Assembly: GCA_026129255.1 (NCBI GenBank)
Contig: JAHCIJ010000002.1
Span: forward strand, 125,799-189,798
DNA length: 64,000 bases
Direction: 5' to 3'
Origin: Anaerolineales bacterium
GTDB lineage: Bacteria; Chloroflexota; Anaerolineae; Anaerolineales; UBA11579
This document shows, piece by piece, positions 1,826 to 54,047 of this stretch. Every line of letters begins with the position of its first letter. The first letter of the stretch is position 1. Under the pieces are notes generated by a model that saw only the letters and a list, made by a program, of their open reading frames with translations, was not told the DNA's origin and made no database searches. A program made the translations under genes and the position numbers.

Positions 1826-1852
1826 GTGTCGCCCTAGCGAGGAAAAGGGCAA
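1826..1852 (+). repeat. hairpin repeat, GCCCT/AGGGC subfamily (solo copy)
   Basis: GTGTC-GCCCT-AGCGAGGAAA-AGGGC-AAC. Same 5' box as the copy at 1905. Confidence 0.6.
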
Positions 1853-1904
1853 CTGAAAAGCATGGTTTCTTGACCCCATCGCTGCATTGGAGCACTCTTT
1901 TTTT

Positions 1905-1934
1905 GTGTCGCCCTGAGCAGAGCGAAGGGCATTC
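1905..1934 (+). repeat. hairpin repeat, GCCCT/AGGGC subfamily; left terminal copy flanking GIY-YIG gene 1
   Basis: GTGTC-GCCCT-GAGC-AGA-GCGA-AGGGC-ATTC. Its reverse-complement partner is at 2284..2311. Confidence 0.75.
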
Positions 1935-1957
1935 ATAAGGGCGGTTTATAGATCAAC

Positions 1958-2254
1958 ATGACTGAAGCCTACGTCTACATTCTCGGCAACAAAGGCGGCA
2001 GGCTCTATGTAGGTGTAACCAATGACCTACAGCGTCGCGTGCATGAGCACAAAACTAAAGCCACCCCTGGATATGCCAGCAAGCTAGGCATATCTCGCCT
2101 CTTGTACTTTGAGACCTTCAATCACATTGTCGATGCGATAGCTGCAGAAAAGCAGATCAAGGGCTGGATACGAAGCAAGAAGCTGGATTTAATCCGTCAG
2201 CACAACCCTAAGTTTGAAGATTTAAGTGCTGATTGGTTTGAATCAGACTCCTAA
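1958..2254 (+). CDS. GIY-YIG nuclease family protein (COG2827/URI-type, 98 aa)
   Basis: YVYILGN..GRLYVGVTNDLQRRVHEH...EKQIKGW motifs. Visibly AT-richer than its neighbours. Flanked by inverted repeat copies. Confidence 0.85.
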   Translation: MTEAYVYILGNKGGRLYVGVTNDLQRRVHEHKTKATPGYASKLGISRLLYFETFNHIVDAIAAEKQIKGWIRSKKLDLIRQHNPKFEDLSADWFESDS

Positions 2255-2283
2255 TGGCTTGGTTTTTGAGACCATCCTTGCGG

Positions 2284-2311
2284 GTGCTCTTCGCTGCGCT
2301 CAGGGCGACAC
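2284..2311 (-). repeat. hairpin repeat, GCCCT subfamily, inverted; right terminal copy flanking GIY-YIG gene 1
   Basis: Its reverse complement is GTGTCGCCCTGAGC-GCA-GCGAAG-AGCAC. It matches 1905..1928 except for the 3-nt loop. Confidence 0.75.
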
Positions 2312-2351
2312 TATGTAGCGTAGCAGTCCTACCAAGCAACCCTGCGGGACA

Positions 2352-2903
2352 CTACGGGCAAAAGTCTGCCCGTGACCACGCGAATAACTCGCCGTCGTAG
2401 TAACTGGCTGCGGGGTCAATGTACAAATAAGCCGCCGGGCCATAGCTGCGCACAATACCAATCACAGCCACACAATCCCCCGTCTTTACGCCCTCATAGT
2501 AGTAGGAGAATGACGCCACCCGAAAGTGCGCCGAGAGCTCGTTAGTCTCCTCGCTGAAGTGGACGTGATAATTACCGCTTGCCTCTTGCAGCACACCGTT
2601 TTCGTAGACATTACGTTCCCCTGATACTGCACTGGCAATTCCATACACGCACATTTCTTGGTTAATGTGCTCGGCCGTGATCGTGTCCCAGCGCACGCAG
2701 TTCTCAAAGCCACGCTCGTCCAGCAGTGTGGGCCATGGCGTCGCTGCGGGCGCGGGCGTAGCGCTTGGCTGTGGTGGTGTGGTGCTCGGCGGTGGCGTGG
2801 GGCTGGGGAGCGGAGTGGCTGTGGCCGTTGGTTCCGCCGGGGCTGGGCTGCATGCGACTAGCAGAATGAACAGGATCATCAGCCCGAGATTTTGTTTCAT
2901 CAT
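2352..2903 (-). CDS. hypothetical lipoprotein (Pro/Thr-rich linker, Cys-containing C-terminal domain)
   Basis: Only the C-terminal 183 codons of track ORF 2352..3719 are used. MMKQNLGLMILFILLVAC is a lipobox signal peptide, and GGGAGGA lies 5-6 nt upstream of ATG 2903. The upstream part of the ORF is antisense to gatB. Confidence 0.7.
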   Translation of the reverse strand: MMKQNLGLMILFILLVACSPAPAEPTATATPLPSPTPPPSTTPPQPSATPAPAATPWPTLLDERGFENCVRWDTITAEHINQEMCVYGIASAVSGERNVYENGVLQEASGNYHVHFSEETNELSAHFRVASFSYYYEGVKTGDCVAVIGIVRSYGPAAYLYIDPAASYYDGELFAWSRADFCP

Positions 2904-2984
2904 CGCATCCTCCCTTGGTAGTGAATGAACAAAGTCAGTATAACCTGCTGAGCTTGCCAGCCTGCAACTGATAGAATTCCCTCT

Positions 2985-4421
2985 ATGACCCAATATGAAG
3001 TTGTCATCGGTCTTGAAACGCATATTCAACTCAACACCGATAGCAAGATCTTTTGCTCCTGCAGCGCTGATTCCTGGGGTGCGGCGCCCAACACCAATAT
3101 CTGCCCCGTGTGCAGCGGCCTGCCCGGCGTGCTGCCCGTGCTGAATGAGGGCGCGGTGCGCAAGGCCGCCACGCTGGCGGCCGCCATGGGCGCCGAGCTC
3201 CAGCCCATCTCGCATTTTGACCGCAAGAACTACTTCTACCCGGATCTGCCCAAGGGTTACCAGATCTCGCAATACGACATGCCGCTCGCCAACGGCGGGT
3301 ACATGGATCTGCCCACCGCCGAGGGCACACGCCGCATCCGCATCCACAAGCTGCATCTGGAGGAAGACGCCGGCAAGACCGTCAACCGCGCCGATGGCGC
3401 CCGTCTGATCGATTTCAATCGCTGCGGTGTGCCGCTGGTCGAGATGGTCACCGGGCCTGATCTGCGCTCGGCTGAAGAGGCGGCCCAGTACCTCATCCGT
3501 CTGCGCCAGCTCCTGCGCTGGCTGGGCATCTCCGAGGCTGACATGGAGAAGGGCCACCTGCGTGCCGATGCCAACGTATCGATCCGCCCTGTGGGCAGCG
3601 ATGTGCTCAACACCAAGACTGAGATCAAGAATGTCAACTCGATCGACTCGCTGCGCTCGGCTATCGAGGTCGAGATCGAACGCCAGATACGCGAAGTCGA
3701 AGCGGGCGGAACCATCCAACCCTGGACCCTGGGCTGGGACGAGAACAGCGGCACGCTGAGCAAGATGCGCTCCAAGGAAACCGAGGCCGACTATCGCTAC
3801 TTCCGCGAGCCTGACCTGCTGCCGTTGGTGCTCGACGATGCCCGCCGTGCCGAAATTATCGACGCCTTGCCAGAACTGCCCCTGGCCCGCCGCCAGCGCT
3901 TCATCGTTGAGGTCGGCCTGCCGGAGTACGACGCCGATATCCTCAGTGGCGAACGCGCCCTCTCAGACTATTTCGAGGCCGCTGCGGCTGCCTATGGCGG
4001 CGATATCAAGCGCGTCTCCAACTGGCTCATGAACGATGTACTCGCCATGCTCAACGAGAGTGGTGAAACCGCGGATAAGCTTAAGCTCACCCCGCAGTAC
4101 TTTACAGAGGTGCTCAAACTGATGGACTCCGGCGCGGTGAACACGCCCACCGGCAAGAGCTTGCTGCTCAAGGTGCAAGCCAGCGGCAAGGCGCCCGCCG
4201 ATATCGTCCAGGCCGAAGGCCTGGCGCAGGTCTCGGACGAAGGCGAGTTGCGCAAGATCGCCGAAGAGATCGTGGCTACGAACCCAGACAACGTTGCCGC
4301 CTTCCGCGCTGGCAAAGAGGCGCTGATGGGTTGGTTCGTGGGCCAGCTCATGCAGCGCACCAAGGGTAAGGCGGATCCCAAGGCTGCCGCCCGCATCCTG
4401 AGCGAACTGTTGCGGGCATGA
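2985..4421 (+). CDS. gatB: Asp-tRNA(Asn)/Glu-tRNA(Gln) amidotransferase subunit B
   Basis: Full-length GatB pattern (YEVVIGLETHIQLNT, CPVCSGLPGVLP, NRCGVPLVEMV) with the GatB/YqeY C-terminal domain. Confidence 0.95.
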   Translation: MTQYEVVIGLETHIQLNTDSKIFCSCSADSWGAAPNTNICPVCSGLPGVLPVLNEGAVRKAATLAAAMGAELQPISHFDRKNYFYPDLPKGYQISQYDMPLANGGYMDLPTAEGTRRIRIHKLHLEEDAGKTVNRADGARLIDFNRCGVPLVEMVTGPDLRSAEEAAQYLIRLRQLLRWLGISEADMEKGHLRADANVSIRPVGSDVLNTKTEIKNVNSIDSLRSAIEVEIERQIREVEAGGTIQPWTLGWDENSGTLSKMRSKETEADYRYFREPDLLPLVLDDARRAEIIDALPELPLARRQRFIVEVGLPEYDADILSGERALSDYFEAAAAAYGGDIKRVSNWLMNDVLAMLNESGETADKLKLTPQYFTEVLKLMDSGAVNTPTGKSLLLKVQASGKAPADIVQAEGLAQVSDEGELRKIAEEIVATNPDNVAAFRAGKEALMGWFVGQLMQRTKGKADPKAAARILSELLRA

Positions 4422-4924
4422 ACCTCGGCACTCCGTTGCCCGAGTTCAGTATCCAGCCAGCTGTGTTGCAGCACGCTGCCGCCATCCATCAACTCATCCA
4501 AGAAGCCGACTTGTTCCAGCACGGACTGGACTGGCGCAACTTCCTGGTCGCCCTCACACCCTCCGGCGAGTTCATCGGCTGCGGCCAAGTCAAGCAACAT
4601 CGTGACGGCACCTGGGAGCTGGCCTCGATCGCCGTGCTGCCCGCCTGGCAAGGCCGCGGCGTGGGCCGCGCCGTCATTGAGGCTTTATTGGCCAGGCACC
4701 CAGGCGAGTTGTATCTCATGAGCATCTCCGCCCTCAAGCCGCTGTACGAGAAATTCGGCTTCGTGGAAATAGCTCCACCTCGGAGTTCGCACAGCGAACT
4801 CCCGCGCAACGCAGTTGCGCAAATGCCAAAATACTTTCGCCGCCTGACTCGGATGCCCGCCATGATCGCTGAATTTGAACGTGTATATGAGCGTATTATG
4901 GTGATGAAGCGCGAGGCCGCATGA
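4418..4924 (+). CDS. GNAT family N-acetyltransferase carrying an in-frame hairpin-element insertion near the C-terminus
   Basis: Acetyl-CoA site WQGRGVGRAVI. ATGA start/stop overlap with gatB. Codons RSSHSELPRNAVAQ are encoded by the double-hairpin element 4782..4827. Confidence 0.85.
   Translation: MNLGTPLPEFSIQPAVLQHAAAIHQLIQEADLFQHGLDWRNFLVALTPSGEFIGCGQVKQHRDGTWELASIAVLPAWQGRGVGRAVIEALLARHPGELYLMSISALKPLYEKFGFVEIAPPRSSHSELPRNAVAQMPKYFRRLTRMPAMIAEFERVYERIMVMKREAA
4782..4827 (+). repeat. 46-nt double-hairpin element, copy 1 (inside the GNAT coding sequence)
   Basis: GAGTTCGC-aca-GCGAACTC followed by GCGCAAC-gca-GTTGCGC. Identical to copy 2 except for the first loop. Confidence 0.8.
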
Positions 4925-5064
4925 AGCTTGTATGCATACTCAAAGCCGCATGGAGTTCGCTACGCGAACTCCCGCGCAACGCAGTTGCGCAAATGCCCGC
5001 CATGCTTGCCGAGTTCGAACGGGTAGGTGAGCGCATCATGGTGATGCGCCGAGTGGGCGCATGA
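4921..5064 (+). pseudogene. 47-codon ORF, a diverged tandem duplicate of the GNAT C-terminal tail (relic or coupled micro-ORF)
   Basis: My own translation: MKLVCILKAAWSSLRELPRNAVAQMPAMLAEFERVGERIMVMRRVGA. It parallels the GNAT tail ...SELPRNAVAQMP..MPAMIAEFERVYERIMVMKREAA. Its ATG overlaps the GNAT stop (ATGA 4921-4924) and its stop overlaps the next start (ATGA 5061-5064). Too short for the ORF track. Confidence 0.35.
4952..4997 (+). repeat. 46-nt double-hairpin element, copy 2
   Basis: GAGTTCGC-tac-GCGAACTC followed by GCGCAAC-gca-GTTGCGC, 170 nt downstream of copy 1. Confidence 0.8.
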
Positions 5065-5399
5065 GCAAGCCATTGGTGCTGTACGATGGCTACTGCGCGC
5101 TGTGCAACCGCAGCGTAAGTTTCCTGCAGGCCCGCCAGCGCCCTGATGCGCTGGAGTACGCCTCGTTGCAGTCGCCGCGCGGCCAGCGCGTGCTGGCCGC
5201 CGCCAACCTGCCCCTGCAGGATTACGACAGTGTAGTCGTGCAAGACGGGGAACGCGTATACCTGCGCTCGGCGGCCGCGCTGCACCTGCTGCGCTACCTG
5301 CGCTCGCCGTGGCCGCTGCTCGGTGTCCTGCGTCTGGTGCCTGCTTTTCTGCGCGACCCTGTCTATGATCTGGTAGCCCACAACAGACATAAATTGTAG
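5061..5399 (+). CDS. thiol-disulfide oxidoreductase DCC family protein (DUF393)
   Basis: N-terminal LYDGYCALCNRSV CxxC motif and typical length of about 110 aa. Confidence 0.8.
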   Translation: MSKPLVLYDGYCALCNRSVSFLQARQRPDALEYASLQSPRGQRVLAAANLPLQDYDSVVVQDGERVYLRSAAALHLLRYLRSPWPLLGVLRLVPAFLRDPVYDLVAHNRHKL

Positions 5400-5431
5400 A
5401 AGGCAGAAGGTAGAGAGTTGCAAATAGGCTT

Positions 5432-5540
5432 GGGGATTGCTTCACTCGCTACGCTCGCTCGCAAAGACAAGCACGACCGTCTTTGCGAGGAGAGCTGAAA
5501 GTTGCATATTGATGCAACTTTCAGCCCCGAAGCAATCCCC
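5432..5540. repeat. hairpin repeats, ATTGC/GCAAT subfamily, head-to-head dimer
   Basis: Inverted copy at 5432..5468 (GGGGATTGCTTC...CTCGCAAAGAC), a 10-nt spacer, then direct copy at 5479..5540 (GTCTTTGCGAGGAG-[32-nt inner hairpin]-CCCGAAGCAATCCCC). Confidence 0.8.
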
Positions 5541-5584
5541 AAGCAAGCTGGCGAAACAGCCCTCAGGCTGCCTGTACGCAAGTA

Positions 5585-5983
5585 TCAGTGTACTAACTGC
5601 TGTTCTAGTTCGTCGATAGCTTCTTGGCGAGCCGGTTCGCCATCGTGATCCCATTGCACACGGATGCGCAGCGGTGGCGGCTTATCATCCGCATAGCCCA
5701 TCAGGTAAAAGAGGGCTGCGGCGCAGTGGTAGCGTACTAATGAATACGCGTCTCCAGCTTCCCGGCGTAAAACATCCAGCAAGACCGGCGCTGCCTGCTC
5801 TAACGTGGCTTTTTCGCGCAGGCGGTACCAGATCGTGTAGTACCCATCATAATTTCCGGCGGCAATATGGGCCAATAGTTCATCTGCCGACAATGCGACA
5901 AACTGATCGGATGTTTGCTGGGCATGCCACTCCCATGCCTCTTGCCAGTTGGAGAACTCGGGCGGCTCAGCTCCGTTTGGCAT
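5585..5983 (-). CDS. hypothetical protein
   Basis: 132-codon ORF with GGAG 7 nt upstream of the ATG. No recognisable family. Composition looks coding. Confidence 0.55.
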   Translation of the reverse strand: MPNGAEPPEFSNWQEAWEWHAQQTSDQFVALSADELLAHIAAGNYDGYYTIWYRLREKATLEQAAPVLLDVLRREAGDAYSLVRYHCAAALFYLMGYADDKPPPLRIRVQWDHDGEPARQEAIDELEQQLVH

Positions 5984-7521: not shown

Positions 7522-7522
7522 T

Positions 7523-12415: not shown

Positions 12416-12477
12416 GTCATTGCGAGGAGGGCTGAGAGTTGCATGTTCATGCAACTCTCAGCCCCGAAGCAATCCCC
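12416..12477 (+). repeat. hairpin repeat, ATTGC/GCAAT subfamily
   Basis: GTCATTGCGAGGAG-[GCTGAGAGTTGCAT-gttc-ATGCAACTCTCAGC]-CCCGAAGCAATCCCC. Confidence 0.85.
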
Positions 12478-14148: not shown

Positions 14149-14694
14149 ATGGCATCCACACCGCAATCGCAACCCGTCATCAACCTGCGCAGCTACCTGT
14201 CTCTGGTGCTCGTTTCAGGCGCCATCATCCTGCTTGACCAACTCACCAAGGCCTGGGTGCGCGACAACCTGGCCCTCAGCCAGACCTGGATGCCCTGGGA
14301 GCAACTGGCTCCCTATGCGCGCATCGTGCACTGGCAGAACAGCGGCGCCGCCTTCGGCATGTTCCAGAACGCCGGCGCCTTTTTCGCCGTGCTGGCCATC
14401 CTCGTGGCAGGCATGATCATCTACTACTTCCCGCGCCTGGAGCCTGGCGACTGGGCCGTGCGCCTGGGCATGAGCCTGCAGTTGGGCGGGGCGCTCGGCA
14501 ACCTGATCGACCGTCTGCAGCACGGCCATGTCACCGATTTCATCTCGATCGGCAACTTCCCCATTTGGAATATTGCCGATGCCGCCATCACCTGCGGTGT
14601 GGCCGTCATGATCCTGGATATGCTCTTCAACCCCACACACAAGAAGCCTGCCGCCACTGCTCCGGTTCACAACGATGACCAAACCTCAAGCTGA
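14149..14694 (+). CDS. lspA: lipoprotein signal peptidase II
   Basis: LDQLTK, NSGAAFGMF, GGALGNLIDR, VTDFI, WNIADAAI. Confidence 0.9.
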   Translation: MASTPQSQPVINLRSYLSLVLVSGAIILLDQLTKAWVRDNLALSQTWMPWEQLAPYARIVHWQNSGAAFGMFQNAGAFFAVLAILVAGMIIYYFPRLEPGDWAVRLGMSLQLGGALGNLIDRLQHGHVTDFISIGNFPIWNIADAAITCGVAVMILDMLFNPTHKKPAATAPVHNDDQTSS

Positions 14695-15688
14695 GCCTGT
14701 AGTGCATGATCTGCAGGTGGCCGCCGGCCCGCAGCGGCTGGACAAGTTCCTGGTAGAGCAGCTGCCAGACTTCTCCCGGGCGCGCCTGCAAGCGCTCATT
14801 AAAGAGGGCCGCGTGCAGGTGGATGGCAAAGCCGCCAGCAAGAGCGGCCAGACGCTGGAAGGGGGCGAGGCGGTGCAAGTGCAGGTGCCGCCTGCCGCGC
14901 CCAGCGAACTGATCCCTGAAGCCATTCCGCTGGATGTGATCTTTGAGAATAACGATGTGCTCATCGTGAACAAGCCCGCTGGCATGGTGGTGCACCCGGC
15001 CGCCGGACACAATACCAGCACCCTCATCCACGCCGCCCTGGCGCACGCCCCGCAGATCCAGGGTGTGGGCGGCGAGCTGCGCCCTGGCCTCGTCCACCGC
15101 TTGGACAAAGACACCTCGGGCCTCATCGTGCTGGCCAAGAATGACGCCGCCCACCACGCCCTGCAGGCCCAGTTCCAGCAGCGCAGCGCACAGAAGACCT
15201 ACATCGCTCTCGTGGATGGCCGCCCCAACACGCCCGAGGGGCGTATTGAGGCCGCCATCGGGCGTGACCTGCGTGAGCGCAAGCGCATGAGCGTCGTGCG
15301 CTCTGCCGGCGGCCGCGGCCGCGGCCGTGAAGCGGTGAGCGAGTACCGCACCCTGCACGAGTACGACGATCACACCCTGCTTGAGGTCAATATCCACACC
15401 GGGCGCACCCACCAAATTCGCGTCCACCTCGCTTTCATCCGTTGCCCGGTTGTGGGCGACACCGTCTATGGTCGCCGCAAACCCAGCCTGCCGCTCAAAC
15501 GCCAATTCCTGCATGCCGCCCGCCTCGGGCTGACCCTGCCCGGCGAGACCGAGATGCGCATCTTCAGCGCACCGCTGCCGGCAGACCTGCAGCATGTGCT
15601 GAATAATATGCGTGACAGATTTAGTTGTCATTCTGAGCCAGCAAGCGGCTTGCCGCTTGCGCCAGCGAAGAATCCATCCTCAAGTTGA
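14675..15688 (+). CDS. rluD: RluA/RluD family 23S rRNA pseudouridine synthase; the last ~20 codons are read from a hairpin repeat
   Basis: S4 domain, catalytic HRLDKDTSGL, and HTGRTHQIRVH. The tail SCHSEPASGLPLAPAKNPSSS is encoded by repeat 15627..15675. Confidence 0.9.
   Translation: MTKPQAEPVVHDLQVAAGPQRLDKFLVEQLPDFSRARLQALIKEGRVQVDGKAASKSGQTLEGGEAVQVQVPPAAPSELIPEAIPLDVIFENNDVLIVNKPAGMVVHPAAGHNTSTLIHAALAHAPQIQGVGGELRPGLVHRLDKDTSGLIVLAKNDAAHHALQAQFQQRSAQKTYIALVDGRPNTPEGRIEAAIGRDLRERKRMSVVRSAGGRGRGREAVSEYRTLHEYDDHTLLEVNIHTGRTHQIRVHLAFIRCPVVGDTVYGRRKPSLPLKRQFLHAARLGLTLPGETEMRIFSAPLPADLQHVLNNMRDRFSCHSEPASGLPLAPAKNPSSS
15627..15675 (+). repeat. hairpin repeat, ATTCT/AGAAT subfamily
   Basis: GTC-ATTCT-GAGC-ca-[GCAAGCGG-cttg-CCGCTTGC]-gcca-GCGA-AGAAT-CC. 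Confidence 0.8.
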
Positions 15689-15753: not shown

Positions 15754-15816
15754 GGATTCCTCACTAGTTAGGGTTCGGCGGGTCTGGTGGTGAGCTATCA
15801 ATCCGTTCGGAATGAC
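15754..15816 (-). repeat. hairpin repeat, ATTCC/GGAAT subfamily, inverted, long variable insert
   Basis: GGATTCCTCAC-[38 nt]-CGTTCGGAATGAC. Confidence 0.75.
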
Positions 15817-24386: not shown

Positions 24387-24523
24387 GGGGATTGCTTCGT
24401 CGGCGTGCTGCGCACGCCTTACACGGCAGCCGCACAGCATGCGGCTGCCGCCTCGCAATGACGATCCCGGGCGTCATTGCGAGGAGCGCTGCATCCTAAA
24501 ATGCAGCCGACGAAGCAATCCCC
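24387..24523. repeat. hairpin repeats, ATTGC/GCAAT subfamily, head-to-head dimer
   Basis: Inverted copy at 24387..24462 (GGGGATTGCTTCGTC-[two inner hairpins]-CCTCGCAATGAC), a 10-nt spacer, then direct copy at 24473..24523 (GTCATTGCGAGGAG-[GCTGCAT-cctaaa-ATGCAGC]-CGACGAAGCAATCCCC). Confidence 0.85.
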
Positions 24524-26155: not shown

Positions 26156-26297
26156 GTCATTCCGAACGAAGTGAGGAATCCGTTAAGGGTCGGAGTTAGA
26201 CGGTGCTTGTCTGAGAAAGGTCTTGCGCAGATGGGTAGTACGTTTTCGTACGCACAACGGATTCCTCCTCACCGCTGCGCGGCTCGTTCGGAATGAC
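26156..26297. repeat. hairpin repeats, ATTCC/GGAAT subfamily, tail-to-tail pair enclosing 72 nt
   Basis: Direct copy at 26156..26184 (GTCATTCCGAACG-aagt-GAGGAATCCGTT) and inverted copy at 26256..26297 (AACGGATTCCTC...CGTTCGGAATGAC). Confidence 0.8.
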
Positions 26298-26332
26298 AAG
26301 ACTTGCGGAAAGCTACAACTGCGAAAGTAGCC

Positions 26333-26361
26333 AAAAGGCGGCCATTCGGCCGCCTTTTTTT
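26333..26361. terminator. bidirectional intrinsic terminator
   Basis: AAAAGGCGGCC-att-CGGCCGCCTTTTTTT. Confidence 0.7.
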
Positions 26362-26378
26362 GGGTTTAAAGCGCGCGC

Positions 26379-26463
26379 GTCATCCTGAGCGGGTAAATCA
26401 AACCACACCAGATCACCGAACCCAGGATAGCGAAGGATCCTTCGCTGCACTCAGGGTGCACGC
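26379..26463. repeat. hairpin repeat, ATCCT/AGGAT subfamily, plus a fused inverted partial copy
   Basis: GTC-ATCCT-GAGCG-[45 nt]-GCGA-AGGAT-CC. The 16-nt perfect palindrome GCGAAGGATCCTTCGC joins it to an inverted GTGCACCCTGAGTGCAGCGAA half. Confidence 0.65.
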
Positions 26464-33814: not shown

Positions 33815-33901
33815 GCTGTAGTTGCTCGCTCGCCGTCATTGCGAGGAGTAGTCGCTGCGTAGCAACGGCAACGGACGAAGCAATCTCCAAACTGTAACTG
33901 C

Positions 33902-33965
33902 ACATTGACGAGGGGATTGCTTCGTCGGCTGCACTTCGTGCAGCACTCCTCGCAATGACGTAGAA
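33902..33965 (+). repeat. 64-nt exact direct repeat, copy 1
   Basis: CTGTAACTGCACATTGACGAGGGGATTGCTTCGTCGGCTGCACTTCGTGCAGCACTCCTCGCAA, identical to 34197..34260. Confidence 0.85.
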
Positions 33966-34196
33966 CCATCATTGCGAGGCGCAGGCAGGTCTGCGCACGA
34001 AGCAATCTGAGTTGCAATCCTGCCCCGCGCAAAAGCTTGTTTGTCATTCCGAACGAGGCCGAAGGCCGAGGAGGAATCCGTTATAGGCTGGTTTGAGTTA
34101 AGGCATATGTGGTGGAGCACAAACCACCTGAGTTCGGATTCTTCCGCTGGGCTTCACAGCGGCAACGGACAAGCAATCGATTGCACAATCCCCAAG

Positions 34197-34260
34197 CTGT
34201 AACTGCACATTGACGAGGGGATTGCTTCGTCGGCTGCACTTCGTGCAGCACTCCTCGCAA
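34197..34260 (+). repeat. 64-nt exact direct repeat, copy 2
   Basis: Identical to 33902..33965. Confidence 0.85.
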
Positions 34261-34279
34261 AGACGTAAATTGCCCTTAC

Positions 34280-34318
34280 AAAAAAGAGGCGCAGCATTTG
34301 CTGCGCCTCTTTTTTTTT
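34280..34318. terminator. bidirectional intrinsic terminator; terminates etfBA on the minus strand
   Basis: AAAAAA-GAGGCGCAGCA-tt-TGCTGCGCCTC-TTTTTTTTT. Confidence 0.85.
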
Positions 34319-36216: not shown

Positions 36217-36286
36217 GTCATTGCGAGGAGTATGCAGTGTGATGCATGAAATGCATCACACTGCAACGGACGAAGCAATCTGGTTT
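36217..36286 (+). repeat. hairpin repeat, ATTGC/GCAAT subfamily; terminal copy flanking GIY-YIG gene 2
   Basis: GTCATTGCGAGGAG-[TGCAGTGTGATGCAT-gaa-ATGCATCACACTGCA]-ACGGACGAAGCAATCTGGTTT. Confidence 0.85.
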
Positions 36287-36291: not shown

Positions 36292-36588
36292 CTAACTAAA
36301 AAGCTCCGTGTACAAATCTCTCCACTCAGGATTGATACTTTCTATCAGATCAATCTTTCTTTGTCTTGAACCAGCCTTGATCTGCTTCTCTCGGGCAATG
36401 GCGTCAAGCATTTGTTCAGTGGTTTCAAAATACACCAGTTTGTTTACACGATACTTTGCAGTAAACCTTCCTGGCACCTGTTCTCGATGTTCCAAAACCC
36501 TTCGTTGCAGGTTGTTAGTTACACCGGTGTACAGGACTTTATTATGACTATTCGTCATTATGTAAACGCAGGGTTGGTTTTCGCTCAT
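36292..36588 (-). CDS. GIY-YIG nuclease family protein (COG2827/URI-type, 98 aa)
   Basis: Start moved to ATG 36588 (MSENQPCVYIMTN...LYTGVTNNLQRRVLEH...EKQIKAG). The 13 extra N-terminal codons of the track ORF (MSLRAQRSNLVSS) are read from the flanking repeat. AT-richer than its flanks. Confidence 0.85.
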   Translation of the reverse strand: MSENQPCVYIMTNSHNKVLYTGVTNNLQRRVLEHREQVPGRFTAKYRVNKLVYFETTEQMLDAIAREKQIKAGSRQRKIDLIESINPEWRDLYTELFS

Positions 36589-36593: not shown

Positions 36594-36625
36594 AAACCAG
36601 ATTGCTTCGCTGCGCTCGCAATGAC
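36594..36625 (-). repeat. hairpin repeat, ATTGC/GCAAT subfamily, inverted; terminal copy flanking GIY-YIG gene 2
   Basis: AAACCAGATTGCTTCG-CTGCG-CTCGCAATGAC. It ends 5 nt from the acd stop codon. Confidence 0.85.
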
Positions 36626-37913: not shown

Positions 37914-37985
37914 CCATTGGTCGGTTGGTCGATTAGTCGATTAGTCTTTCGATTGACTAGCAGACCAATCGACTAGTAGACCATC
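37914..37985. repeat. 8-nt-phased TTGGTCG/TTAGTCG word tract forming an imperfect palindrome
   Basis: ccattggt|cggttggt|cgattagt|cgattagt|ctttcgat|tgactagc|agaccaat|cgactagt|agaccatc. Lies in the divergent acd / TPR promoter gap. Confidence 0.7.
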
Positions 37986-38005
37986 ACACTACTTATAATC
38001 CCCGC

Positions 38006-39067
38006 ATGCGTCGTGCTCCCCGCAAACTCCTGCTGCTCGCGCTGCTAGCTGCCCTGGTGTTCTTGCTGCCCACCTGGTGGATGCGCATCTGGTTGCCGCG
38101 CCAGGGCGGCGTGCCTACGCCCACCGTACAGGCCACGCAGTCCGCGCACGAGCGCAGCTATCGCCAGGCGGTGGAGCTGGCCGCCAGCGAGCCGCTGGAC
38201 GCCTTGCCGCTGCTCAATGAGCTCGCCTTCACAGAGAGTCCGTATGCCAGCGCCGCCCTGACCATCCGCCAGGGCATCCAGAGCGGCCGCCTGAGCGGCG
38301 ACCGCGCCTACCTGCTCACCGCCACCGGCCAGGCGCTGGCCGCAGTGGGGGAGTGGCCCGCCGCCCGCCAGGCGTTCCTGGCCGCGGTGGAGGCCAACCC
38401 GGAATTCGCCGAGGCCTGGGCCTATCTGGGCGAAGCGCTGCAGCAAAACGGGCAGGATGGGCTGGCTGCCCTGGAGAAAGCCGAGCAGCTCGACCCGAAC
38501 TCGCTCTCCGTGCGCCTGTTCCTTGCCCTGTACTGGCAGCGCCAGGCGGATTTTGAGCGCGCCGAGCGCAACTTGCGCGTGGCCGCCCTGCAATACCCGC
38601 AGAATCCGCTGGTGCAGATGCAGTTGGCCGAGAACGCGGTCCTGATGGGCGATACGACCGCCGCCCTGCCGTATTTGGAACGCGCCCTGCAGTTGGCGCC
38701 CAATGACCCGGCCATCTGGCGCGCCGTGGCGGTGTACAGCGTGGAATCGGCCTTGTATGTGGAGGAGGCCGGGCTGGCGGCGCTGGAGCTGCTGCATGAG
38801 CGCTACCCAGGCCAGGCCGACCTGCTCACCCTGCACGCCCGCGCCTTGGCGTTACTGCGCCGCGACAGCCAAGCTGAGGAGTATTTTCAACAGGCGCTGC
38901 AAGCCGATGAAGCCTACACGCCCGCCCACCTGTACTACGGCATCTTTCTGCTGGCGGGCCAACGCACTGCTGAAGCGCGCACGCACCTCAATCAAGTGCT
39001 GGCGTTGCAACCCAGCGGCCCACAGGCCGATCTGGCCGCCCACTGGCTAGCGCAAATTTCCCAGTAA
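38006..39067 (+). CDS. tetratricopeptide repeat protein with N-terminal signal/anchor
   Basis: N-terminal hydrophobic segment, then repeated A..W..LG......G....A...F..AL..-P TPR units. Confidence 0.8.
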   Translation: MRRAPRKLLLLALLAALVFLLPTWWMRIWLPRQGGVPTPTVQATQSAHERSYRQAVELAASEPLDALPLLNELAFTESPYASAALTIRQGIQSGRLSGDRAYLLTATGQALAAVGEWPAARQAFLAAVEANPEFAEAWAYLGEALQQNGQDGLAALEKAEQLDPNSLSVRLFLALYWQRQADFERAERNLRVAALQYPQNPLVQMQLAENAVLMGDTTAALPYLERALQLAPNDPAIWRAVAVYSVESALYVEEAGLAALELLHERYPGQADLLTLHARALALLRRDSQAEEYFQQALQADEAYTPAHLYYGIFLLAGQRTAEARTHLNQVLALQPSGPQADLAAHWLAQISQ

Positions 39068-49974: not shown

Positions 49975-50001
49975 GTGCATCCCGAGCGTAGCGAGGGATC
50001 C
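49975..50001 (+). repeat. hairpin repeat, ATCCC/GGGAT subfamily (minimal copy)
   Basis: GTGC-ATCCC-GAGCG-ta-GCGA-GGGAT-CC. Confidence 0.7.
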
Positions 50002-50050: not shown

Positions 50051-50113
50051 GGATTCTTCCCTGGTCTGGGCTCGGCGATTCGGGTGTGCATGTACAAACC
50101 CGGTCAGAATGAC
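50051..50113 (-). repeat. hairpin repeat, ATTCT/AGAAT subfamily, inverted
   Basis: GGATTCTTCC-[42 nt]-GGTCAGAATGAC. Confidence 0.65.
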
Positions 50114-50199: not shown

Positions 50200-51069
50200 A
50201 TGAAGCCAATACACGCAGTGCTGTGTGCCCTCACCTCGCTGGCCCTGGCGGCCTGCAATCTGCCGGCCACGCCCGTACAGCCCACGGCCACCAGCATCAC
50301 CTTGCCCCCAGCCACCCAAACCGCCGCGCCCACGCCGCCGGCGGCCGAGCCTACCCCCAGCGGCGAAGTGGCTCTCGAAGCCATCCTCATCGGCAGCCCC
50401 GGTTTCGGTTCGACCCTGACCTCGCCCGTCACGGTAAGCGGGCAATCTCGCCCCACCTTTGAGCAGACCTTGGTGATCGCCATCTATGATGAAGCGGGTA
50501 ACCAGATTGCGTTGACGCCCACCACAATTGCTGCAGACATGGGCAACCCCGGACCCTTCTCTGCCGAACTTAGCTTCACCGTACCCTACGAGCAGCCCGG
50601 CCGTGTGGCGGTGATGGAACACAGCGCTATGGACGGTGGCTTGGTACACCTCACCAGTGTGGAAGTTACGCTACTGCCCTCCGGCAGCGCAGTAGTGCTG
50701 CCGCAACCTGTAGCTGGCGAGAATATTGATATTCAATTCCCGCTGCCCAACAGTACGATCAGCGGCGGTAGCCTCAGCGTAAGCGGATACTCGCAGTATT
50801 ACTTTGAAGCCAATCTGGGCCTGATGTTGTGCGGCGCAGGCGACGGCAGCGGCGAGCCGCATGCCATTTGCGGTGAGAGCAGTAATGTGCTCGCTGCCAG
50901 CTATGCCACTATCGCTTCACCAGACATCGGCCAACCCGGCCCTTTTAGTGGCGCACTCACTTGGTCGGTGAGTGCCGCCACGCCGGGGCGCATCGTGCTG
51001 TATGCTGAGTCCATGCGTGATGGCGGCTTACTCCATCTGAACAGTATCCCTGTGTTGATCCAACCTTGA
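50200..51069 (+). CDS. lipoprotein with two Gmad2-like immunoglobulin-fold domains
   Basis: Lipobox LALAAC. The block GS.L.SP..VSG......E..L......D..G........ is duplicated, and each copy ends ...DGGL.HL.S..V. Confidence 0.75.
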   Translation: MKPIHAVLCALTSLALAACNLPATPVQPTATSITLPPATQTAAPTPPAAEPTPSGEVALEAILIGSPGFGSTLTSPVTVSGQSRPTFEQTLVIAIYDEAGNQIALTPTTIAADMGNPGPFSAELSFTVPYEQPGRVAVMEHSAMDGGLVHLTSVEVTLLPSGSAVVLPQPVAGENIDIQFPLPNSTISGGSLSVSGYSQYYFEANLGLMLCGAGDGSGEPHAICGESSNVLAASYATIASPDIGQPGPFSGALTWSVSAATPGRIVLYAESMRDGGLLHLNSIPVLIQP

Positions 51070-51872
51070 GCGGCCCGAAGCCTGTCGCCATTGTCACAGG
51101 CGCCTCGTCCGGAATTGGTGAGGCCACGGCGCGCCTGTTGGCCGCCGATGGCTACCGCGTCGTGCTGGCCGCCCGCCGCCTGGAGCGCCTGGAGGCGCTC
51201 CAGCAGGCGATCGCCGCCGCGGGCGGCGAGGCGCTTGCGGTGCGCACGGATGTAGGCCACCCGGCGGACGTGCAGGCGCTGGTGGAGCGCACGCTGGCAG
51301 CCTATGGCCAGGTGGATGTGCTCTTCAATAATGCCGGTTTTGGCCGCACCAAATGGTTGGATGAGTTGGACCCTGAGAAAGACATCCTGCCCCAGATCCA
51401 GGTCAACCTCAGCGGTACGATCCTGACCACGCGCGCCGTGCTGCCCCACATGATCGCCCGCCGCCGCGGCCATATCATCAACATGAGCTCGCTGGGTGGC
51501 CTGATGGCCACGCCCACCTATAGCGTGTACGCCGCCACCAAATATGGCTTGCGCGGTTTCAGCGACGCGCTGCGCCGTGAAGTGGGCGTGTTCGGCATTA
51601 AGGTCTCGGTGGTGTACCCGGGCGGCGTCTCCGGTGACTTTGCCAGCCACACCGGTATGCAGCGCAAATCGCAGCTCAGCACGCCCCGCGCGCTGGTGCT
51701 TACCCCACAGCAAGTGGCGCAGGCCGTGCGCGGCCTGGTGCGCCGCCCGCGGCGCAGCCTGGTGCTGCCGTGGGTCTATCGTCTCGTTGTGTTGTTCTCA
51801 GAGCTCTTCCCCAGTCTGAATGACTGGGTGCAGGAGCAGATTTTTACCCGCCCAGAGCGCGGGATGAAATAG
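51066..51872 (+). CDS. SDR family oxidoreductase
   Basis: TGASSGIG, NNAG, and the catalytic YAATKYG. ATGA-type overlap with the upstream gene. Confidence 0.9.
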   Translation: MSGPKPVAIVTGASSGIGEATARLLAADGYRVVLAARRLERLEALQQAIAAAGGEALAVRTDVGHPADVQALVERTLAAYGQVDVLFNNAGFGRTKWLDELDPEKDILPQIQVNLSGTILTTRAVLPHMIARRRGHIINMSSLGGLMATPTYSVYAATKYGLRGFSDALRREVGVFGIKVSVVYPGGVSGDFASHTGMQRKSQLSTPRALVLTPQQVAQAVRGLVRRPRRSLVLPWVYRLVVLFSELFPSLNDWVQEQIFTRPERGMK

Positions 51873-51920
51873 GGGCATAACCGTATAATCCCTTAAATCC
51901 ATCGGCACCAGAGGAGTGAT

Positions 51921-53828
51921 ATGAAGCCATCTTTTGGCGACCGCCTGCGTTACCGCTTTGATAACCTGATGTCTCTCGGCACACCGGCGCTCATCGGTGT
52001 GCTTTTTGTGGTTTCCCTCCTAGTGGTGCTGCTGGCCGCCGCCATCCTCTCCATCGCTGGCTTCGTACCCGAGGGCGACCTCGAGCCGCTGAGCTTCGCC
52101 GAGGCCGCCTGGCAGAGCCTGATGCGTACGCTCGATTCAGGCACCATGGGCGGCGACACCGGGGCGGGCTACCGCGCCGTGATGCTGGCGGTGACCCTGG
52201 GCGGCGTGTTCATTGTCAGCGCCCTGATCGGCGTGCTCAACAATGGCATTGAGCGCCGCATCGAGGAGATGCGCAAGGGCCGCTCACGCGTGCTGGAATA
52301 CGGGCACACCCTGATCCTGGGCTGGTCTCCGCAGATCTTCACCATCCTCAACGAGCTGATCATTGCCAACCAGAATCAGAAGCACGCCTGCATTGTGGTG
52401 CTGGCTGACCGTGACAAAGTGGAGATGGAAGACGAGCTGCGCGAGCGCGTGGCCCTGCGCGGCAGCAATACGCGCATCATCTGCCGCACCGGCAGCCCCA
52501 GCGACCCGGCTGACATCAACATTGCCAATCCGCAGACCAGCAAATCCATAATCATCCTCCCGCCGGATACGGCTGACCCGGATGCCGAAGTCATCAAGTC
52601 GGTACTGGCCATCACCAATGCTGCCAACCGCCGCGAGGAGCCCTATTCGATCAGCACGCAGGTGCGCAATGCCCGCAACCTGAATTTGCTCAACCTGGTC
52701 AGCGCCCAGGACAAGCTGCAAGTGGTGCTGATCGGCGATCTGATCTCGCGCCTCGTGGCGCAGGCCAATCACCAATCTGGCCTCTCGGTGGTCTACACCG
52801 AGCTGATGAACTTTGATGGCGACGAGATCTACTTCAAAGAAGAGCCACAGTTGGTGGGCAAGACCTACGGCGAAGCCGTGCTGGCCTATGAGGACTCTGC
52901 CGTGATGGGCCTGCGCAAAATGGATGGCGCCATTTTGCTGAACCCGCCCATGGACGCGCTCATTGAGCCAGGCGACCACATCTTTGCACTCTCGTCTGAC
53001 GATGACACCATCCACCTGACGAATGCAGAGATGATCGACATTCAGGATGAGCTCATTCTTAACGATGTGCAGGCGGCGCCTGCTGAGCCGGTGCGCACGC
53101 TGATTCTGGGCTGGAACCAAAATGGCTTCACCATCATGCGCGAGCTGGATCACTACGTCACACGTGGCTCCGAGCTGCGCGTAGTGGCCGACATCAGCGA
53201 AGCGGCTGCCGAGGGCATCCGCACGCAGGCCACCGCCCTGCAAAACCTGCAGCTGGTGGTAATGCAAGGCGACGCTACTGACCGTGGCCTGCTGGATGCC
53301 CTGCGCGTGGATGACTACAATCACGTCATCGTGCTGGCCTACATTGAGCGCGGCGTGCAGCAAGCAGATGCCCTGACGCTGGTCACTCTGTTGCACCTGC
53401 GAGACATCTTCCATCACGATCAGACGCCCTTCTCCATCGTGAGCGAGATGCTCGACCTGCGCAACCGTGAGCTGGCCCAGGTAGCCCGCGTGGATGACTT
53501 CATCGTCAGCGAGCAGCTCATCAGCCTGATGATGGCGCAGTTTGCCGAGAACGCAGACCTGTACGCCGTCTTTGAGGACATTTTTGACCCGCAGGGCTCC
53601 GAGATCTACCTCAAACCCGTAGAGTTATATGTGGAAAAGGGGCGCCCGGTGAACTTCTATACGGTGGCCGAAGCCGCCCGCCGCCGCGGCGAAACCGCCA
53701 TCGGCTACCGCATCCAGGCCGACGCCAACCACCCAGAGGAAGCGTACGGCGTGCACACCAACCCGCCCAAGTCTGAGTCGATCATCTTCGGCGACGGCGA
53801 TAAGGTCATTGTGCTGGCGGAGAATTAG
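51921..53828 (+). CDS. CASTOR/POLLUX-related putative ion channel with tandem RCK/TrkA-N-like domains
   Basis: Two to three N-terminal TM segments with a pore-like segment TMGGDTG. Two HTLILGW / TLILGWN RCK-type domains. Confidence 0.8.
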   Translation: MKPSFGDRLRYRFDNLMSLGTPALIGVLFVVSLLVVLLAAAILSIAGFVPEGDLEPLSFAEAAWQSLMRTLDSGTMGGDTGAGYRAVMLAVTLGGVFIVSALIGVLNNGIERRIEEMRKGRSRVLEYGHTLILGWSPQIFTILNELIIANQNQKHACIVVLADRDKVEMEDELRERVALRGSNTRIICRTGSPSDPADINIANPQTSKSIIILPPDTADPDAEVIKSVLAITNAANRREEPYSISTQVRNARNLNLLNLVSAQDKLQVVLIGDLISRLVAQANHQSGLSVVYTELMNFDGDEIYFKEEPQLVGKTYGEAVLAYEDSAVMGLRKMDGAILLNPPMDALIEPGDHIFALSSDDDTIHLTNAEMIDIQDELILNDVQAAPAEPVRTLILGWNQNGFTIMRELDHYVTRGSELRVVADISEAAAEGIRTQATALQNLQLVVMQGDATDRGLLDALRVDDYNHVIVLAYIERGVQQADALTLVTLLHLRDIFHHDQTPFSIVSEMLDLRNRELAQVARVDDFIVSEQLISLMMAQFAENADLYAVFEDIFDPQGSEIYLKPVELYVEKGRPVNFYTVAEAARRRGETAIGYRIQADANHPEEAYGVHTNPPKSESIIFGDGDKVIVLAEN

Positions 53829-53884
53829 CTTTAACTCGGCAGGCTTGTTATACCTCTCGCGCTGCATAGAAGAGGTGCCTGCAT

Positions 53885-53946
53885 GGATTCCTCACTGATA
53901 CAGCCTCGGTAGGCAGGTGTAGGCTTAATCACCCGTTCGGAATGAC
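53885..53946 (-). repeat. hairpin repeat, ATTCC/GGAAT subfamily, inverted
   Basis: GGATTCCTCAC-[37 nt]-CCGTTCGGAATGAC. Confidence 0.75.
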
Positions 53947-53999
53947 ATGTGGGCAGTAGGCACATGCGGTGCTTCCACCGCATGTGCCTTTCCCTAGCC

Positions 54000-54047
54000 G
54001 TCATTGTGAGGAGTGCTGCACGAAGTGCAGCCGACGAAGCAATCTCC
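54000..54047 (+). repeat. hairpin repeat, ATTGC/GCAAT subfamily
   Basis: GTCATTGTGAGGAG-[TGCTGCAC-gaa-GTGCAGC]-CGACGAAGCAATCTCC. Same inner hairpin as the copies at 33922 and 34217. Confidence 0.85.

Follow-up and report, generated by a model that had tools for sequence, protein, structure and literature searches.

The intergenic repeats of the window (the whole 64-kb stretch of Anaerolineales DNA analysed here) are real, structure-constrained DNA hairpins. They most probably represent hairpins of the CGTC-tagged REP / Ssn-related motif (SRM) kind, with copies that are mobile and that are cut by an Ssn-type GIY-YIG nuclease of their own class. The system itself has already been described; the hairpin shape found here escapes the published search motif.

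Identification of hairpin repeats in the window

A tolerant scan with curation of the 64-kb window recovered 24 clear copies of a (Y)GTC-X5-GA...GA(A)-X5'-C(C) hairpin, 24–72 nt in full length, together with two to three fragments. The original prediction had put the number at approximately 28, and the elements were located where it had placed them, except for a few that were about 10 nt off (33835 rather than 33845, 33968 rather than 33978, and 33912-14 rather than 33922). The copies and the two nuclease genes are as follows.

1828..1852 (+), degenerate GCCCT-class copy (GTCGCCCTAGCGAGGAAAAGGGCAA) within a left-end duplication 5' of ssn gene 1
1907..1932 (+), short-form GCCCT-class copy, GTC-GCCCT-GAGC-AGA-GCGA-AGGGC; left flank of ssn gene 1
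1958..2254 (+), ssn-like gene 1, single-domain GIY-YIG nuclease, 98 aa (Pfam PF01541, E=1.5e-12)
2284..2309 (-), GCCCT-class copy with one stem mismatch; inverted right flank of ssn gene 1
5434..5468 (-), ATTGC-class copy (TTTGC variant), head-to-head with 5479..5538
5479..5538 (+), ATTGC-class copy (TTTGC variant) with a 16-bp upper hairpin
12416..12475 (+), ATTGC-class copy starting 10 nt past the upstream gene's stop codon
15627..15675 (+), ATTCT-class copy; extends over the end of ORF 14675-15688 and rewrites its C-terminus
15754..15816 (-), ATTCC-class copy, long-insert form, 62-63 nt
24389..24462 (-), ATTGC-class copy (ATTCG-free) with two upper hairpins, head-to-head with 24473..24521; orthologous site in L085 empty
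24473..24521 (+), ATTGC-class copy
26156..26181 (+), short-form ATTCC-class copy, GTC-ATTCC-GAAC-GAA-GTGA-GGAAT-CC, tail-to-tail with 26259-26297
26259..26297 (-), ATTCC-class copy
26379..26440 (+), ATCCT-class copy, long-insert form
26435..26460 (-), degenerate inverted copy with TGC tag and ACCCT/AGGAT stem, sharing a GGATCC tail with 26379..26440 (read from sequence)
33835..33886 (+), ATTGC-class copy
33914..33959 (-), ATTGC-class copy
33968..34008 (+), ATTGC-class copy with tag ATC in place of GTC
34043..34079 (+), ATTCC-class copy
34128..34175 (no strand), chimeric fragment in which an inverted ATTCT copy's tail adjoins an ATTGC copy's 3' part (read from sequence)
34219..34264 (-), ATTGC-class copy (TTTGC variant) inside an 82-nt duplication of 33881-33962
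36217..36281 (+), ATTGC-class copy flanking the 3' end of ssn gene 2
36292..36588 (-), ssn-like gene 2, single-domain GIY-YIG nuclease, 98 aa (Pfam PF01541, E=1e-15)
36599..36625 (-), short-form ATTGC-class copy, GTC-ATTGC-GAGC-GCA-GCGA-A-GCAAT-CT, flanking the 5' end of ssn gene 2
49976..50001 (+), short-form ATCCC-class copy with TGC tag
50051..50113 (-), ATTCT-class copy, long-insert form; near-identical copies in relatives L081 and L082
53885..53946 (-), ATTCC-class copy, long-insert form
54000..54045 (+), ATTGC-class copy (ATTGT variant) with one G·T pair

The strict form GTC-X5-GA...(AA, GA or AG)-revcomp(X5) gave 16 matches (50 shuffles averaged 2.4 and never exceeded 6), and 16/16 of these lie outside genes, though the copy at 15627..15675 overlaps the C-terminal end of ORF 14675-15688. 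The loose 5' box alone, GTCNNNNNGARSG, was not enriched in the window (12 matches, 8.5 expected). The majority of copies sit directly 3' of genes, and head-to-head or tail-to-tail pairs are frequent. On a rough ORF map with about 20 intergenic gaps of 100 bp or more, repeats occur in about 10 of them, and not in almost every gap longer than ~100 bp as had been claimed; the recurrent pseudo-peptides ascribed to the repeats (LSLRAQRSNL and CHSEPAS...AKNP) are both real.

Hairpin anatomy and covariation of the stems

As read from the sequences, each hairpin begins on its 5' side with a Y-GTC tag, and its class is set by the lower stem of five Watson-Crick pairs that comes next. Above this stem, tandem G·A/A·G mismatches and then G-C pairs form one or two modules, the top is either a G-N-A triloop or a variable, perfectly paired hairpin no longer than ~50 nt, and on the 3' side the complementary stem arm is followed by C(C). 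All six predicted stem classes are present, namely ATTGC (with TTTGC and ATTGT variants), ATTCC, ATTCT, ATCCT, ATCCC and GCCCT; they share the YGTC tag, the stem-adjacent GA and the C tail, as expected of the single superfamily with constant boxes that had been proposed. In the 24 curated copies, the tag is GTC in 22 (ATC and TGC in the other two), a pyrimidine (T or C) occupies position -1 in 23, the stem begins with AT in 18 (the exceptions being the GCCCT class and the TTTGC variants), and C directly follows the stem in 21, with A in the three GCCCT-class copies; the tail reads CC, CT or C.

The two stem arms were predicted to change together, and they do: changes on both sides were observed at 5/5 stem pairs of the curated copies, with 96.7% of cells paired versus 76.6% in shuffles (a value that 0/500 shuffles reached) and at most 56% in a sliding register. 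A pairing-free test assigned the nearest 3' half-site to the same class for 16 of 17 5' half-sites, and to a different class for none. These data correspond to approximately 5–6 independent covariation events rather than 28, because copies within a class share descent. Generic DNA folding energies were unremarkable (z -2.0 to +0.9, from an energy model that does not cover tandem G·A and GNA-loop stability), which leaves covariation as the argument for structure. A hairpin may gain extra stability from tandem G·A pairs and GNA loops.

Two GIY-YIG nuclease genes and their flanking hairpins

PF01541 spans residues 4-75 and 19-91 of the two ORFs tested, and Pfam revealed no further domains in either protein, bar a weak T5orf172 overlap. 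At 98 aa each, both are single-domain GIY-YIG proteins of the family size (~100 aa, or <150 aa). Gene 1 exhibited 37% identity over nearly the full length (E=1e-21) to a 94-aa Neisseria gonorrhoeae protein (L104 1498-1782), and gene 2 exhibited 43% identity to it over 93 aa, gap-free, with a pairwise E=1e-27 (tblastn E=8e-18 in a search against 7.3 Gb). The gonococcal protein, whose gene is flanked by canonical NTS repeats, is probably the ortholog of SsnA (CAX49033.1); both window proteins are similar to SsnA as measured against this protein, which stands in for N. meningitidis (Nm) SsnA. It has the residues that were mutated in Nm SsnA (Y6, Y17 and E64), and published Ssn homologs were defined by E<=1e-10, at least 75% cover and the top CDD assignment cd10448 (GIY-YIG_unchar_3) (PMC11893778). 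Close membership of UPF0213 was rejected, PDB matches to UPF0213 proteins being weak (E ~0.4).

Gene 1 lies between inverted GCCCT hairpins at 1907-1932 (+) and 2284-2309 (-), and gene 2, whose insertion separates an acyl-CoA dehydrogenase gene from etfB/etfA, lies between inverted ATTGC hairpins at 36217-36281 (+) and 36599-36625 (-). At both genes the hairpins are <500 bp away on each side, the placement of SRMs, and their tails point towards the gene. The link to GIY-YIG paralogs hinted at in the original prediction is thus borne out, with one stem class for each gene.

This pairing extends to 76 evaluable loci from Chloroflexota, Cyanobacteria, Bacteroidota, Proteobacteria, Patescibacteria and others: an ATTGC-type hairpin lies <=200 nt from the gene-2-like gene in 76/76 and on both sides of it in 61, and hairpins number 5.3 per kb near the gene versus 0.44 per kb elsewhere. 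The simple arrangement (forward upstream and inverted downstream, nearest copies) occurs in only 35/76 loci, and the N. gonorrhoeae hairpins point their tags at the gene, so flanking orientation varies. Furthermore, ACCCT/GCCCT hairpins flank gene-1 orthologs, and distant homologs in Shinella, Azospirillum, Novosphingobium, Spirosoma, Aeromonas and Neisseria each go with a different stem. The ATTCC, ATTCT, ATCCT and ATCCC classes have no cognate nuclease gene in the window.

Hairpin turnover between related genomes

The coding DNA is 82–86% identical to that of L081 and L082, yet the hairpin content of the orthologous intergenic region is entirely different. At two gene junctions where the window carries 150–170 nt of hairpins, the L085 genes overlap or lie 10 nt from each other. 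Related Anaerolineales thus carry different hairpins or none at orthologous sites, an insertion polymorphism which indicates that the repeats turn over. Gene-1 orthologs hold the same syntenic place in two to three related Anaerolineales genomes.

The hairpin clusters of the window are mosaics with truncated and chimeric pieces. Taken together, hairpin turnover, gene damage, mosaics and cross-phylum spread look like selfish spread and decay.

Proposed mechanism and alternative explanations

By homology to characterized Ssn systems, the hairpin would fold when DNA becomes single-stranded (e.g., during replication, repair or DNA uptake), and a small single-domain Ssn-family GIY-YIG nuclease would bind it by shape and sequence and nick the hairpin-bearing strand a few nucleotides upstream of the tag. 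Each nuclease paralog would serve one stem class (gene 1, GCCCT; gene 2, ATTGC), and both proteins are predicted from sequence to cut these hairpins. A gene between two inverted own-class copies resembles an insertion sequence or a REP-flanked RAYT; solitary copies and gene-less dimers are most likely non-autonomous derivatives, multiplying and decaying within the genome, and the gene-plus-hairpin unit probably also moves between phyla. The cut may drive copying of the repeats. GIY-YIG enzymes are hydrolases of DNA with no known strand-joining activity, which counts against this copying step.

The hairpins could instead be targets of ssDNA restriction or recombination control, as proposed for Neisseria, and not mobile elements, a possibility we regard as real but rather unlikely. 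The host would keep hairpins around its genes as sites at which Ssn cleaves ssDNA that is incoming or exposed; this partly overlaps with our preferred reading and differs in how copies are maintained. Nm SsnA lowers transformation by NTS-containing DNA ~5-fold (PMC11893778), and the gene-1 ortholog stays at the same chromosomal place in relatives, as a domesticated gene would. Host upkeep is, however, difficult to reconcile with hairpin content that differs wholly between orthologous sites of 82–86% identical genomes, with the copy that damages a gene's C-terminus, with clusters made of truncated and chimeric pieces, and with the occurrence of the same gene-plus-hairpin unit across phyla. We also know of no natural competence in the Anaerolineales host lineage.

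Covariation alone does not separate RNA from ssDNA, and the original prediction of selection on a folded strand had left both open: its fold is backed by covariation, whereas RNA is opposed for the nuclease interaction, as Nm SsnA showed no binding to the hairpin as RNA (PMC11893778). Elements acting as RNA (terminators, mRNA stabilisers or small RNAs), with the nuclease genes as bystanders, would suit the position of most copies directly after genes, as for CGTC REPs (PMC3733652), but we consider this improbable: the 24 curated copies use both strands relative to neighbouring genes (14 on +, 10 on -) and often form head-to-head or tail-to-tail pairs, no T-run follows the hairpins and separate classical terminators adjoin some (34270-34318), Rfam gave no family match, and the strict cross-phylum association with a DNA nuclease gene would go unexplained. 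The tagged hairpins, dimers and mosaic clusters have the general shape of REPs/BIMEs, and could be ordinary REPs moved by a Y1 (RAYT / IS200-like) transposase encoded elsewhere, the GIY-YIG adjacency being secondary. This is highly improbable, as the tag is (C/T)GTC and not GTAG, a search for RAYT association of CGTC REPs found none (PMC3733652), and the only genes flanked by repeats, in the window and in 76/76 related loci, are GIY-YIG genes.

Comparison with known systems

Small GIY-YIG Ssn nucleases bind their hairpin as ssDNA and cut just upstream of the tag, and the association of ssn genes with hairpin repeats has been published (Chenal et al. 2025, Nat Commun, PMC11893778). Neisseria SsnA binds and cuts ssDNA only, neither RNA nor dsDNA, and in Nm the GTC 5' of the stem and the C 3' of it are critical for cutting and binding (PMC11893778); the window repeats conserve both. 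Most classes share with SRMs, including Neisseria NTS/dRS3, an AT-starting stem besides the (C/T)GTC tag and the C right after the stem, and the lower stems ATTCC, ATCCC, ATCCT and GCCC- also occur in canonical SRMs of other bacteria. Likewise common to both are single-domain GIY-YIG proteins of 94–98 aa (37–43% identical to the gonococcal protein, the probable SsnA), hairpin-flanked genes, and different homologs going with different hairpins. The published motif HGTCWYN(0-2)YYVSBRHN(0-5)WNVSBRGN(0-2)RNCYNB, in an implementation that matches the NTS and NTSvar consensus sequences, nevertheless had 0 matches in the window (0.39 expected by chance) and 5 across the 910 kb of related loci. Two substitutions separate the short ATTCC and ATTGC forms from this motif, and more than two the GCCCT, ACCCT and ATCCC forms. 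Whereas the canonical SRM has a perfect 8–9-bp stem and a 3–5-nt loop, the stem of the window repeats is 5 bp long and continues into tandem G·A pairs, with a GNA triloop or long variable upper hairpin on top. The host also differs, being an environmental Anaerolineales bacterium and not a symbiont or pathogen, and the activity of its two proteins is predicted from sequence.

CGTC-tagged REPs comprise four families with 8–9-bp stems and 4–5-nt loops, located mostly just downstream of genes, with no dedicated enzyme found (Di Nocera, De Gregorio and Rocco 2013, BMC Genomics, PMC3733652). The window repeats resemble them in the unpaired terminal CGTC/TGTC tag, the A-T/T-A stem start (the first two stem pairs being A-T in five of six classes), the short unpaired C-rich tail (consensus CCA in the REPs), the intergenic location mostly after genes, the frequent inverted dimers with occasional gene-end insertion, and the lack of a tyrosine transposase link, judged in the window from the flanked genes. 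They differ in their 5-bp stems with G·A modules, their long inserts, and the GIY-YIG gene inside dimers.

The RAYT system, defined by a GTAG tag and a Y1 (HUH) transposase, differs in both: the window tag is (C/T)GTC, of CGTC type, and the flanked genes are GIY-YIG. RAYTs, HUH tyrosine transposases related to IS200/IS605, cut and rejoin through a covalent intermediate, whereas GIY-YIG enzymes only hydrolyse, and the two are unrelated in sequence and fold. The organization is nonetheless similar to REP/REPIN and RAYT: intergenic hairpins with an unpaired tag, dimers, mosaic clusters and (in the window, predicted) action on ssDNA, and a single-copy enzyme gene between inverted copies of its own repeat, co-varying with that repeat and fixed in place across related genomes as the repeats turn over. 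Particular to this window are hairpins outside the published SRM motif, in which a 5-bp stem is joined through tandem G·A pairs to an upper hairpin that varies, and six stem classes together in 64 kb.

Inventory and stem covariation of the hairpin repeats

The original prediction had described a superfamily of hairpin repeats in six stem classes, and we confirmed the repeat sequences at the positions where it had placed them, a few starts being about 10 nt off. A tolerant scan followed by manual curation yielded 24 copies in the window, along with two or three fragments, all copies being intergenic and grouped in ten clusters. The six classes, named by the five bases of the 5' arm (X5), were all recovered: ATTGC (with TTTGC and ATTGT variants), ATTCC, ATTCT, ATCCT, ATCCC and GCCCT. 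The loose 5' box proposed for them was not enriched by itself (12 matches vs 8.5 expected); the full form, GTC-X5-GA-spacer-AA/GA/AG-reverse complement of X5, was matched 16 times, whereas 50 shuffles averaged 2.4 matches and never exceeded 6. The claim that copies occupy almost every longer intergenic gap proved overstated, as about 10 of some 20 gaps of at least 100 bp hold one on a rough ORF map.

The predicted covariation of the stem was borne out in an alignment of the 24 curated copies from which the variable middle was excluded. Both-side changes occurred at all five pairs, and 96.7% of stem cells were paired, compared with 76.6% in shuffles (0 of 500 reached 96.7%) and at most 56% in a slid register. 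Because copies are partly recognised by pairing, we also performed a pairing-free test, in which all 5' and 3' half-sites of ten known classes were collected and the nearest downstream 3' class was scored. In the window, 16 of 17 5' halves had a partner of their own class as the nearest and none had one of another class; in 910 kb (the window plus related loci), 372 pairs were same-class and 39 cross-class, 14 of the latter joining ACCCT with its one-mismatch relative. Same-class copies share descent, and the independent covariation events number about five or six. MAFFT alignments were unreliable at the 3' arm (variable inserts), and copies were recovered by pattern scans.

Rfam searches of the hairpins gave no match at the gathering threshold or at E ≤ 1, with sub-threshold matches on terminators only, and a tRNA search of the window found none. 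A hammerhead-like reading of 'GTC...GA' was dropped on account of core misfit and the silence of Rfam. A BIME-like mosaic at 33835-34265 combines five hairpins from two classes with one chimeric fragment and a duplication of 82 nt (96% identity), and is followed by a separate bidirectional terminator (34270-34318).

Architecture of the hairpins

Short forms of the hairpin, by stem class
ATTCC class: GTC-ATTCC-GAAC-GAA-GTGA-GGAAT-CC
GCCCT class: GTC-GCCCT-GAGC-AGA-GCGA-AGGGC
ATCCC class: TGC-ATCCC-GAGC-GTA-GCGA-GGGAT-CC
ATTGC class: GTC-ATTGC-GAGC-GCA-GCGA-A-GCAAT-CT

Read from the sequence, the 5-bp stem is adjoined by 5'-GA-3' opposite 3'-AG-5' and then by one or two G-C or A-T pairs, and the short forms are topped by a three-base loop, which is G-N-A in four of five. 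The ATTGC class carries one additional A adjoining the 3' arm, and often has two GA-plus-GC modules (GAGGAG / CGACGA). DNA hairpins are known to gain stability from tandem G·A pairs and C-GNA-G triloops, the classic case being d(GCGAAGC). Generic DNA folding energies of the hairpins were unremarkable, as computed with a folding tool that has no terms for either element.

Long forms bear a perfect upper hairpin in place of the triloop, different in each copy. A further, long-insert form of 62-63 nt (15754-15816, 26379-26440, 50051-50113 and 53885-53946) contains a conserved insert of about 38 nt (CGG-RT...CACC...CCGA-RSC...) on one scaffold, in three different stem classes. It is near-identical in two related Anaerolineales loci, L081 (16515-16576) and L082 (16956-17017), was found in no sequences other than the window and its close relatives, and has an inner structure that is predicted to be weak.

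Two nuclease genes between inverted hairpins

Single-domain GIY-YIG proteins of family cd10448 have been named Ssn, and their genes are flanked by the Neisseria hairpin NTS (CGTCATTCCCGCGMAVGCGGGAATCYRG) and related 'SRM' hairpins (Chenal et al. 2025; PMC11893778). Two ssn-like genes lie in the window, each encoding a 98-aa GIY-YIG protein, the two products being 45% identical.

Nuclease genes of the window
1958-2254, + strand: gene 1, flanked by GCCCT hairpins, forward at 1907-1932 and inverted at 2284-2309
36292-36588, - strand: gene 2, between mutually inverted ATTGC hairpins (36217-36281 and 36599-36625)

At both genes the tags face outward and the inverted repeat runs slightly past the hairpin. 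Gene 2 and its hairpins are inserted 4 nt past an acyl-CoA dehydrogenase stop codon, before the etfB and etfA genes. For comparison, a gonococcal chromosome encodes, between canonical NTS repeats, a protein of 94 aa that carries Y6, Y17 and E64, the residues mutated in the Ssn study (PMC11893778); we infer that it is the SsnA ortholog. The gene 2 protein is 43% identical to it, ungapped, and the gene 1 protein 37%, about the same as between the window pair. The N. gonorrhoeae records NZ_CP119140.1 and NZ_CP119142.1, one of which encodes this protein, are labelled plasmids in PLSDB, with a whole-chromosome size of 2.17 Mb. A PDB sequence search returned nothing beyond weak matches to UvrC and UPF0213, and no structure of an Ssn protein.

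At the left end of gene 1, the hairpin, 5' leader and first ssn codons are duplicated head-to-tail in the window (1828-1932, two units), in L081 (9870-9975, two units) and in L082 (9500-9970, seven units). All junctions fall just upstream of the GTGTC tag, where an Ssn cut would be expected.

Homologs in other genomes

Gene 2 has thousands of relatives. We sampled 80 loci from one-genome-per-species contigs (56-83% identity), spanning Chloroflexota, Cyanobacteria, Bacteroidota, Ignavibacteria, Alpha-, Gamma- and Deltaproteobacteria, Patescibacteria, Spirochaetes and Acidobacteriota. An ATTGC-type hairpin lay within 200 nt of the gene in every one of the 76 loci with enough flank—on both sides in 61, and as a forward copy upstream with an inverted copy downstream in 54—and hairpin density near the gene was twelve times that of the rest of the locus. 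In three Anaerolineales genomes, the gene 1 ortholog has ACCCT/GCCCT hairpins at its flanks, and more distant homologs have stems of their own: ATCCTCGGG in Shinella, ATCCCCGCG in Azospirillum, GCCCCGTG in Novosphingobium, ATCCC plus GAGG in Spirosoma, and ATTCCCGCG in Aeromonas and Neisseria. When the first 80 loci were screened for additional GIY-YIG paralogs associated with other hairpin classes, one weak match was obtained.

Among 2.9 million viral contigs, gene 2 relatives occurred at one locus, and phages are therefore not obvious carriers; 17 viral matches to canonical NTS pairs about 300 nt apart included none with an ssn gene.

Turnover between related genomes

The window is collinear with the Anaerolineales assemblies GCA_019637675.1 and GCA_019454165.1 (coding DNA 82-86% identical), a third Anaerolineales assembly being 70-76% identical, and the breaks in collinearity coincide exactly with the hairpin clusters. 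The interval between the DCC1-like and PMT_2 genes holds an ATTGC dimer in the window, ACCCT arrays with a long-insert ATTCT copy in L081, and ATTGC, ACCCT and ATTCC hairpins plus two long-insert copies in L082. In the related locus L085, the FtsK stop codon overlaps the start of the next gene, a junction that in the window spans 170 nt and carries two hairpins, and the pseudouridine-synthase gene lies 10 nt from its neighbour, compared with 150 nt in the window. Because hairpin content differs in this way at orthologous sites, the repeats are gained and lost on a short time scale. The gene 1 ortholog keeps its place across the relatives.

The C-terminus of the pseudouridine-synthase-like ORF 14675-15688 runs through a hairpin copy in the window (...FSCHSEPASGLPLAPAKNPSSS), and the L085 ortholog ends in ...LRAAGRKGA. 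Judged from these two sequences, the hairpin is a repeat insertion that rewrites the protein end, with the last residues replaced. The recurrent pseudo-peptide HSEPAS...AKNP, attributed to the repeats in the original prediction, was traced to this ORF end (CHSEPAS...AKNP).

Other features near the repeats

An HNH endonuclease gene (PF01844, PF14279; 26585-27100, - strand) adjoins the hairpin cluster 26156-26460. A 132-aa ORF (5585-5983, - strand) adjoins the cluster 5434-5538; it has no Pfam match, blastn found no counterpart of the stretch in L081, L082 or L085, and it may represent cargo or be a spurious ORF. The final ~140 nt of an acetyltransferase gene (4782-4924) are duplicated about 140-170 nt downstream (4952-5064; 78-93% identity). 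Repeated GTCGATTAGTC / GACTAGT motifs at 37928-38002, immediately preceding the gene that starts at 38006, resemble an operator array. Five tandem units of about 43 nt at 63725-63940, each with CTGATGATTGACA (including a TTGACA hexamer), lie just upstream of the gene at 62685-63701 (- strand).

Discussion

Each of four purified Ssn homologs bound its own hairpin solely as ssDNA of one strand, with cleavage a few nucleotides upstream; cutting depended most on the three bases before the stem and binding most on the C after it, and altering the stem sequence with the fold kept abolished activity (PMC11893778). By homology, the hairpins of the window would fold in single-stranded DNA, the 5-bp stem and its flanks would be read by a cognate Ssn paralog, and that paralog would nick upstream of the tag. 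Architecture, cross-phylum spread and insertion polymorphism further suggest that gene-plus-hairpin units act as autonomous elements, with single hairpins and gene-less dimers as their non-autonomous offspring. This five-step account is the best supported. A role in ssDNA restriction may apply as well and could coexist with it: in N. meningitidis, the Ssn enzyme reduces transformation by NTS-bearing DNA (PMC11893778). The proposals that the repeats act as RNA, or that they are mobilised by a Y1 transposase, are both poorly supported. The Ssn authors noted an IS-like, REP/RAYT-like architecture (PMC11893778).

We consider it possible, at somewhat less than an even chance, that Ssn proteins are the missing mobilising enzymes of the CGTC-tagged REPs, a GIY-YIG counterpart of REPIN/RAYT, with a single genome able to hold six or more orthogonal nuclease-hairpin classes. 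If so, the 5-bp stem would tell the classes apart, a shared G·A-zipper scaffold would bear the variable upper hairpins, and the published SRM census, blind to that scaffold, would badly under-count the system in Chloroflexota, Cyanobacteria and other environmental phyla. The close relatives supply clean filled and empty sites, the kind of evidence needed on whether the nucleases spread the repeats. The window also offers two new candidate nuclease-hairpin pairs, and four further classes whose enzymes should sit elsewhere in the genome; such pairs would be useful if Ssn enzymes become site-specific ssDNA cutters.

The hairpin repeats are real and were well read in the original prediction, but they are already explained in kind: the kind of system is known, and no new field is opened. 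Their particular value lies in a motif-escaping variant, six coexisting stem classes and the clean filled/empty sites. CGTC-tagged REPs have an unpaired CGTC/TGTC tag, an A-T-starting stem and a CCA-like tail, are intergenic and frequently form inverted dimers; Neisseria dRS3 and the Rickettsia repeats RPE-4 and RPE-6 are among them, and they were concluded to 'lack a dedicated transposase' (Di Nocera et al. 2013; PMC3733652). Our literature search found no Ssn-family paper later than Chenal et al. 2025. The tag and tail positions are conserved in the window's repeats. The published degenerate SRM motif, which as implemented here does match NTS and NTSvar, matches none of the window copies and five in 910 kb of ATTGC-hairpin-dense loci; furthermore, the hairpins fall outside the published stem and loop dimensions of CGTC REPs. 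The published search motif thus misses a widespread architecture—a 5-bp stem, tandem G·A pairs and a variable top—that flanks all 76 homologs sampled across many phyla. Because tag and tail are kept while the SRM motif and the CGTC REP dimensions are not, we class the window's repeats as a structural variant of the known CGTC REP/SRM hairpins rather than plain members.
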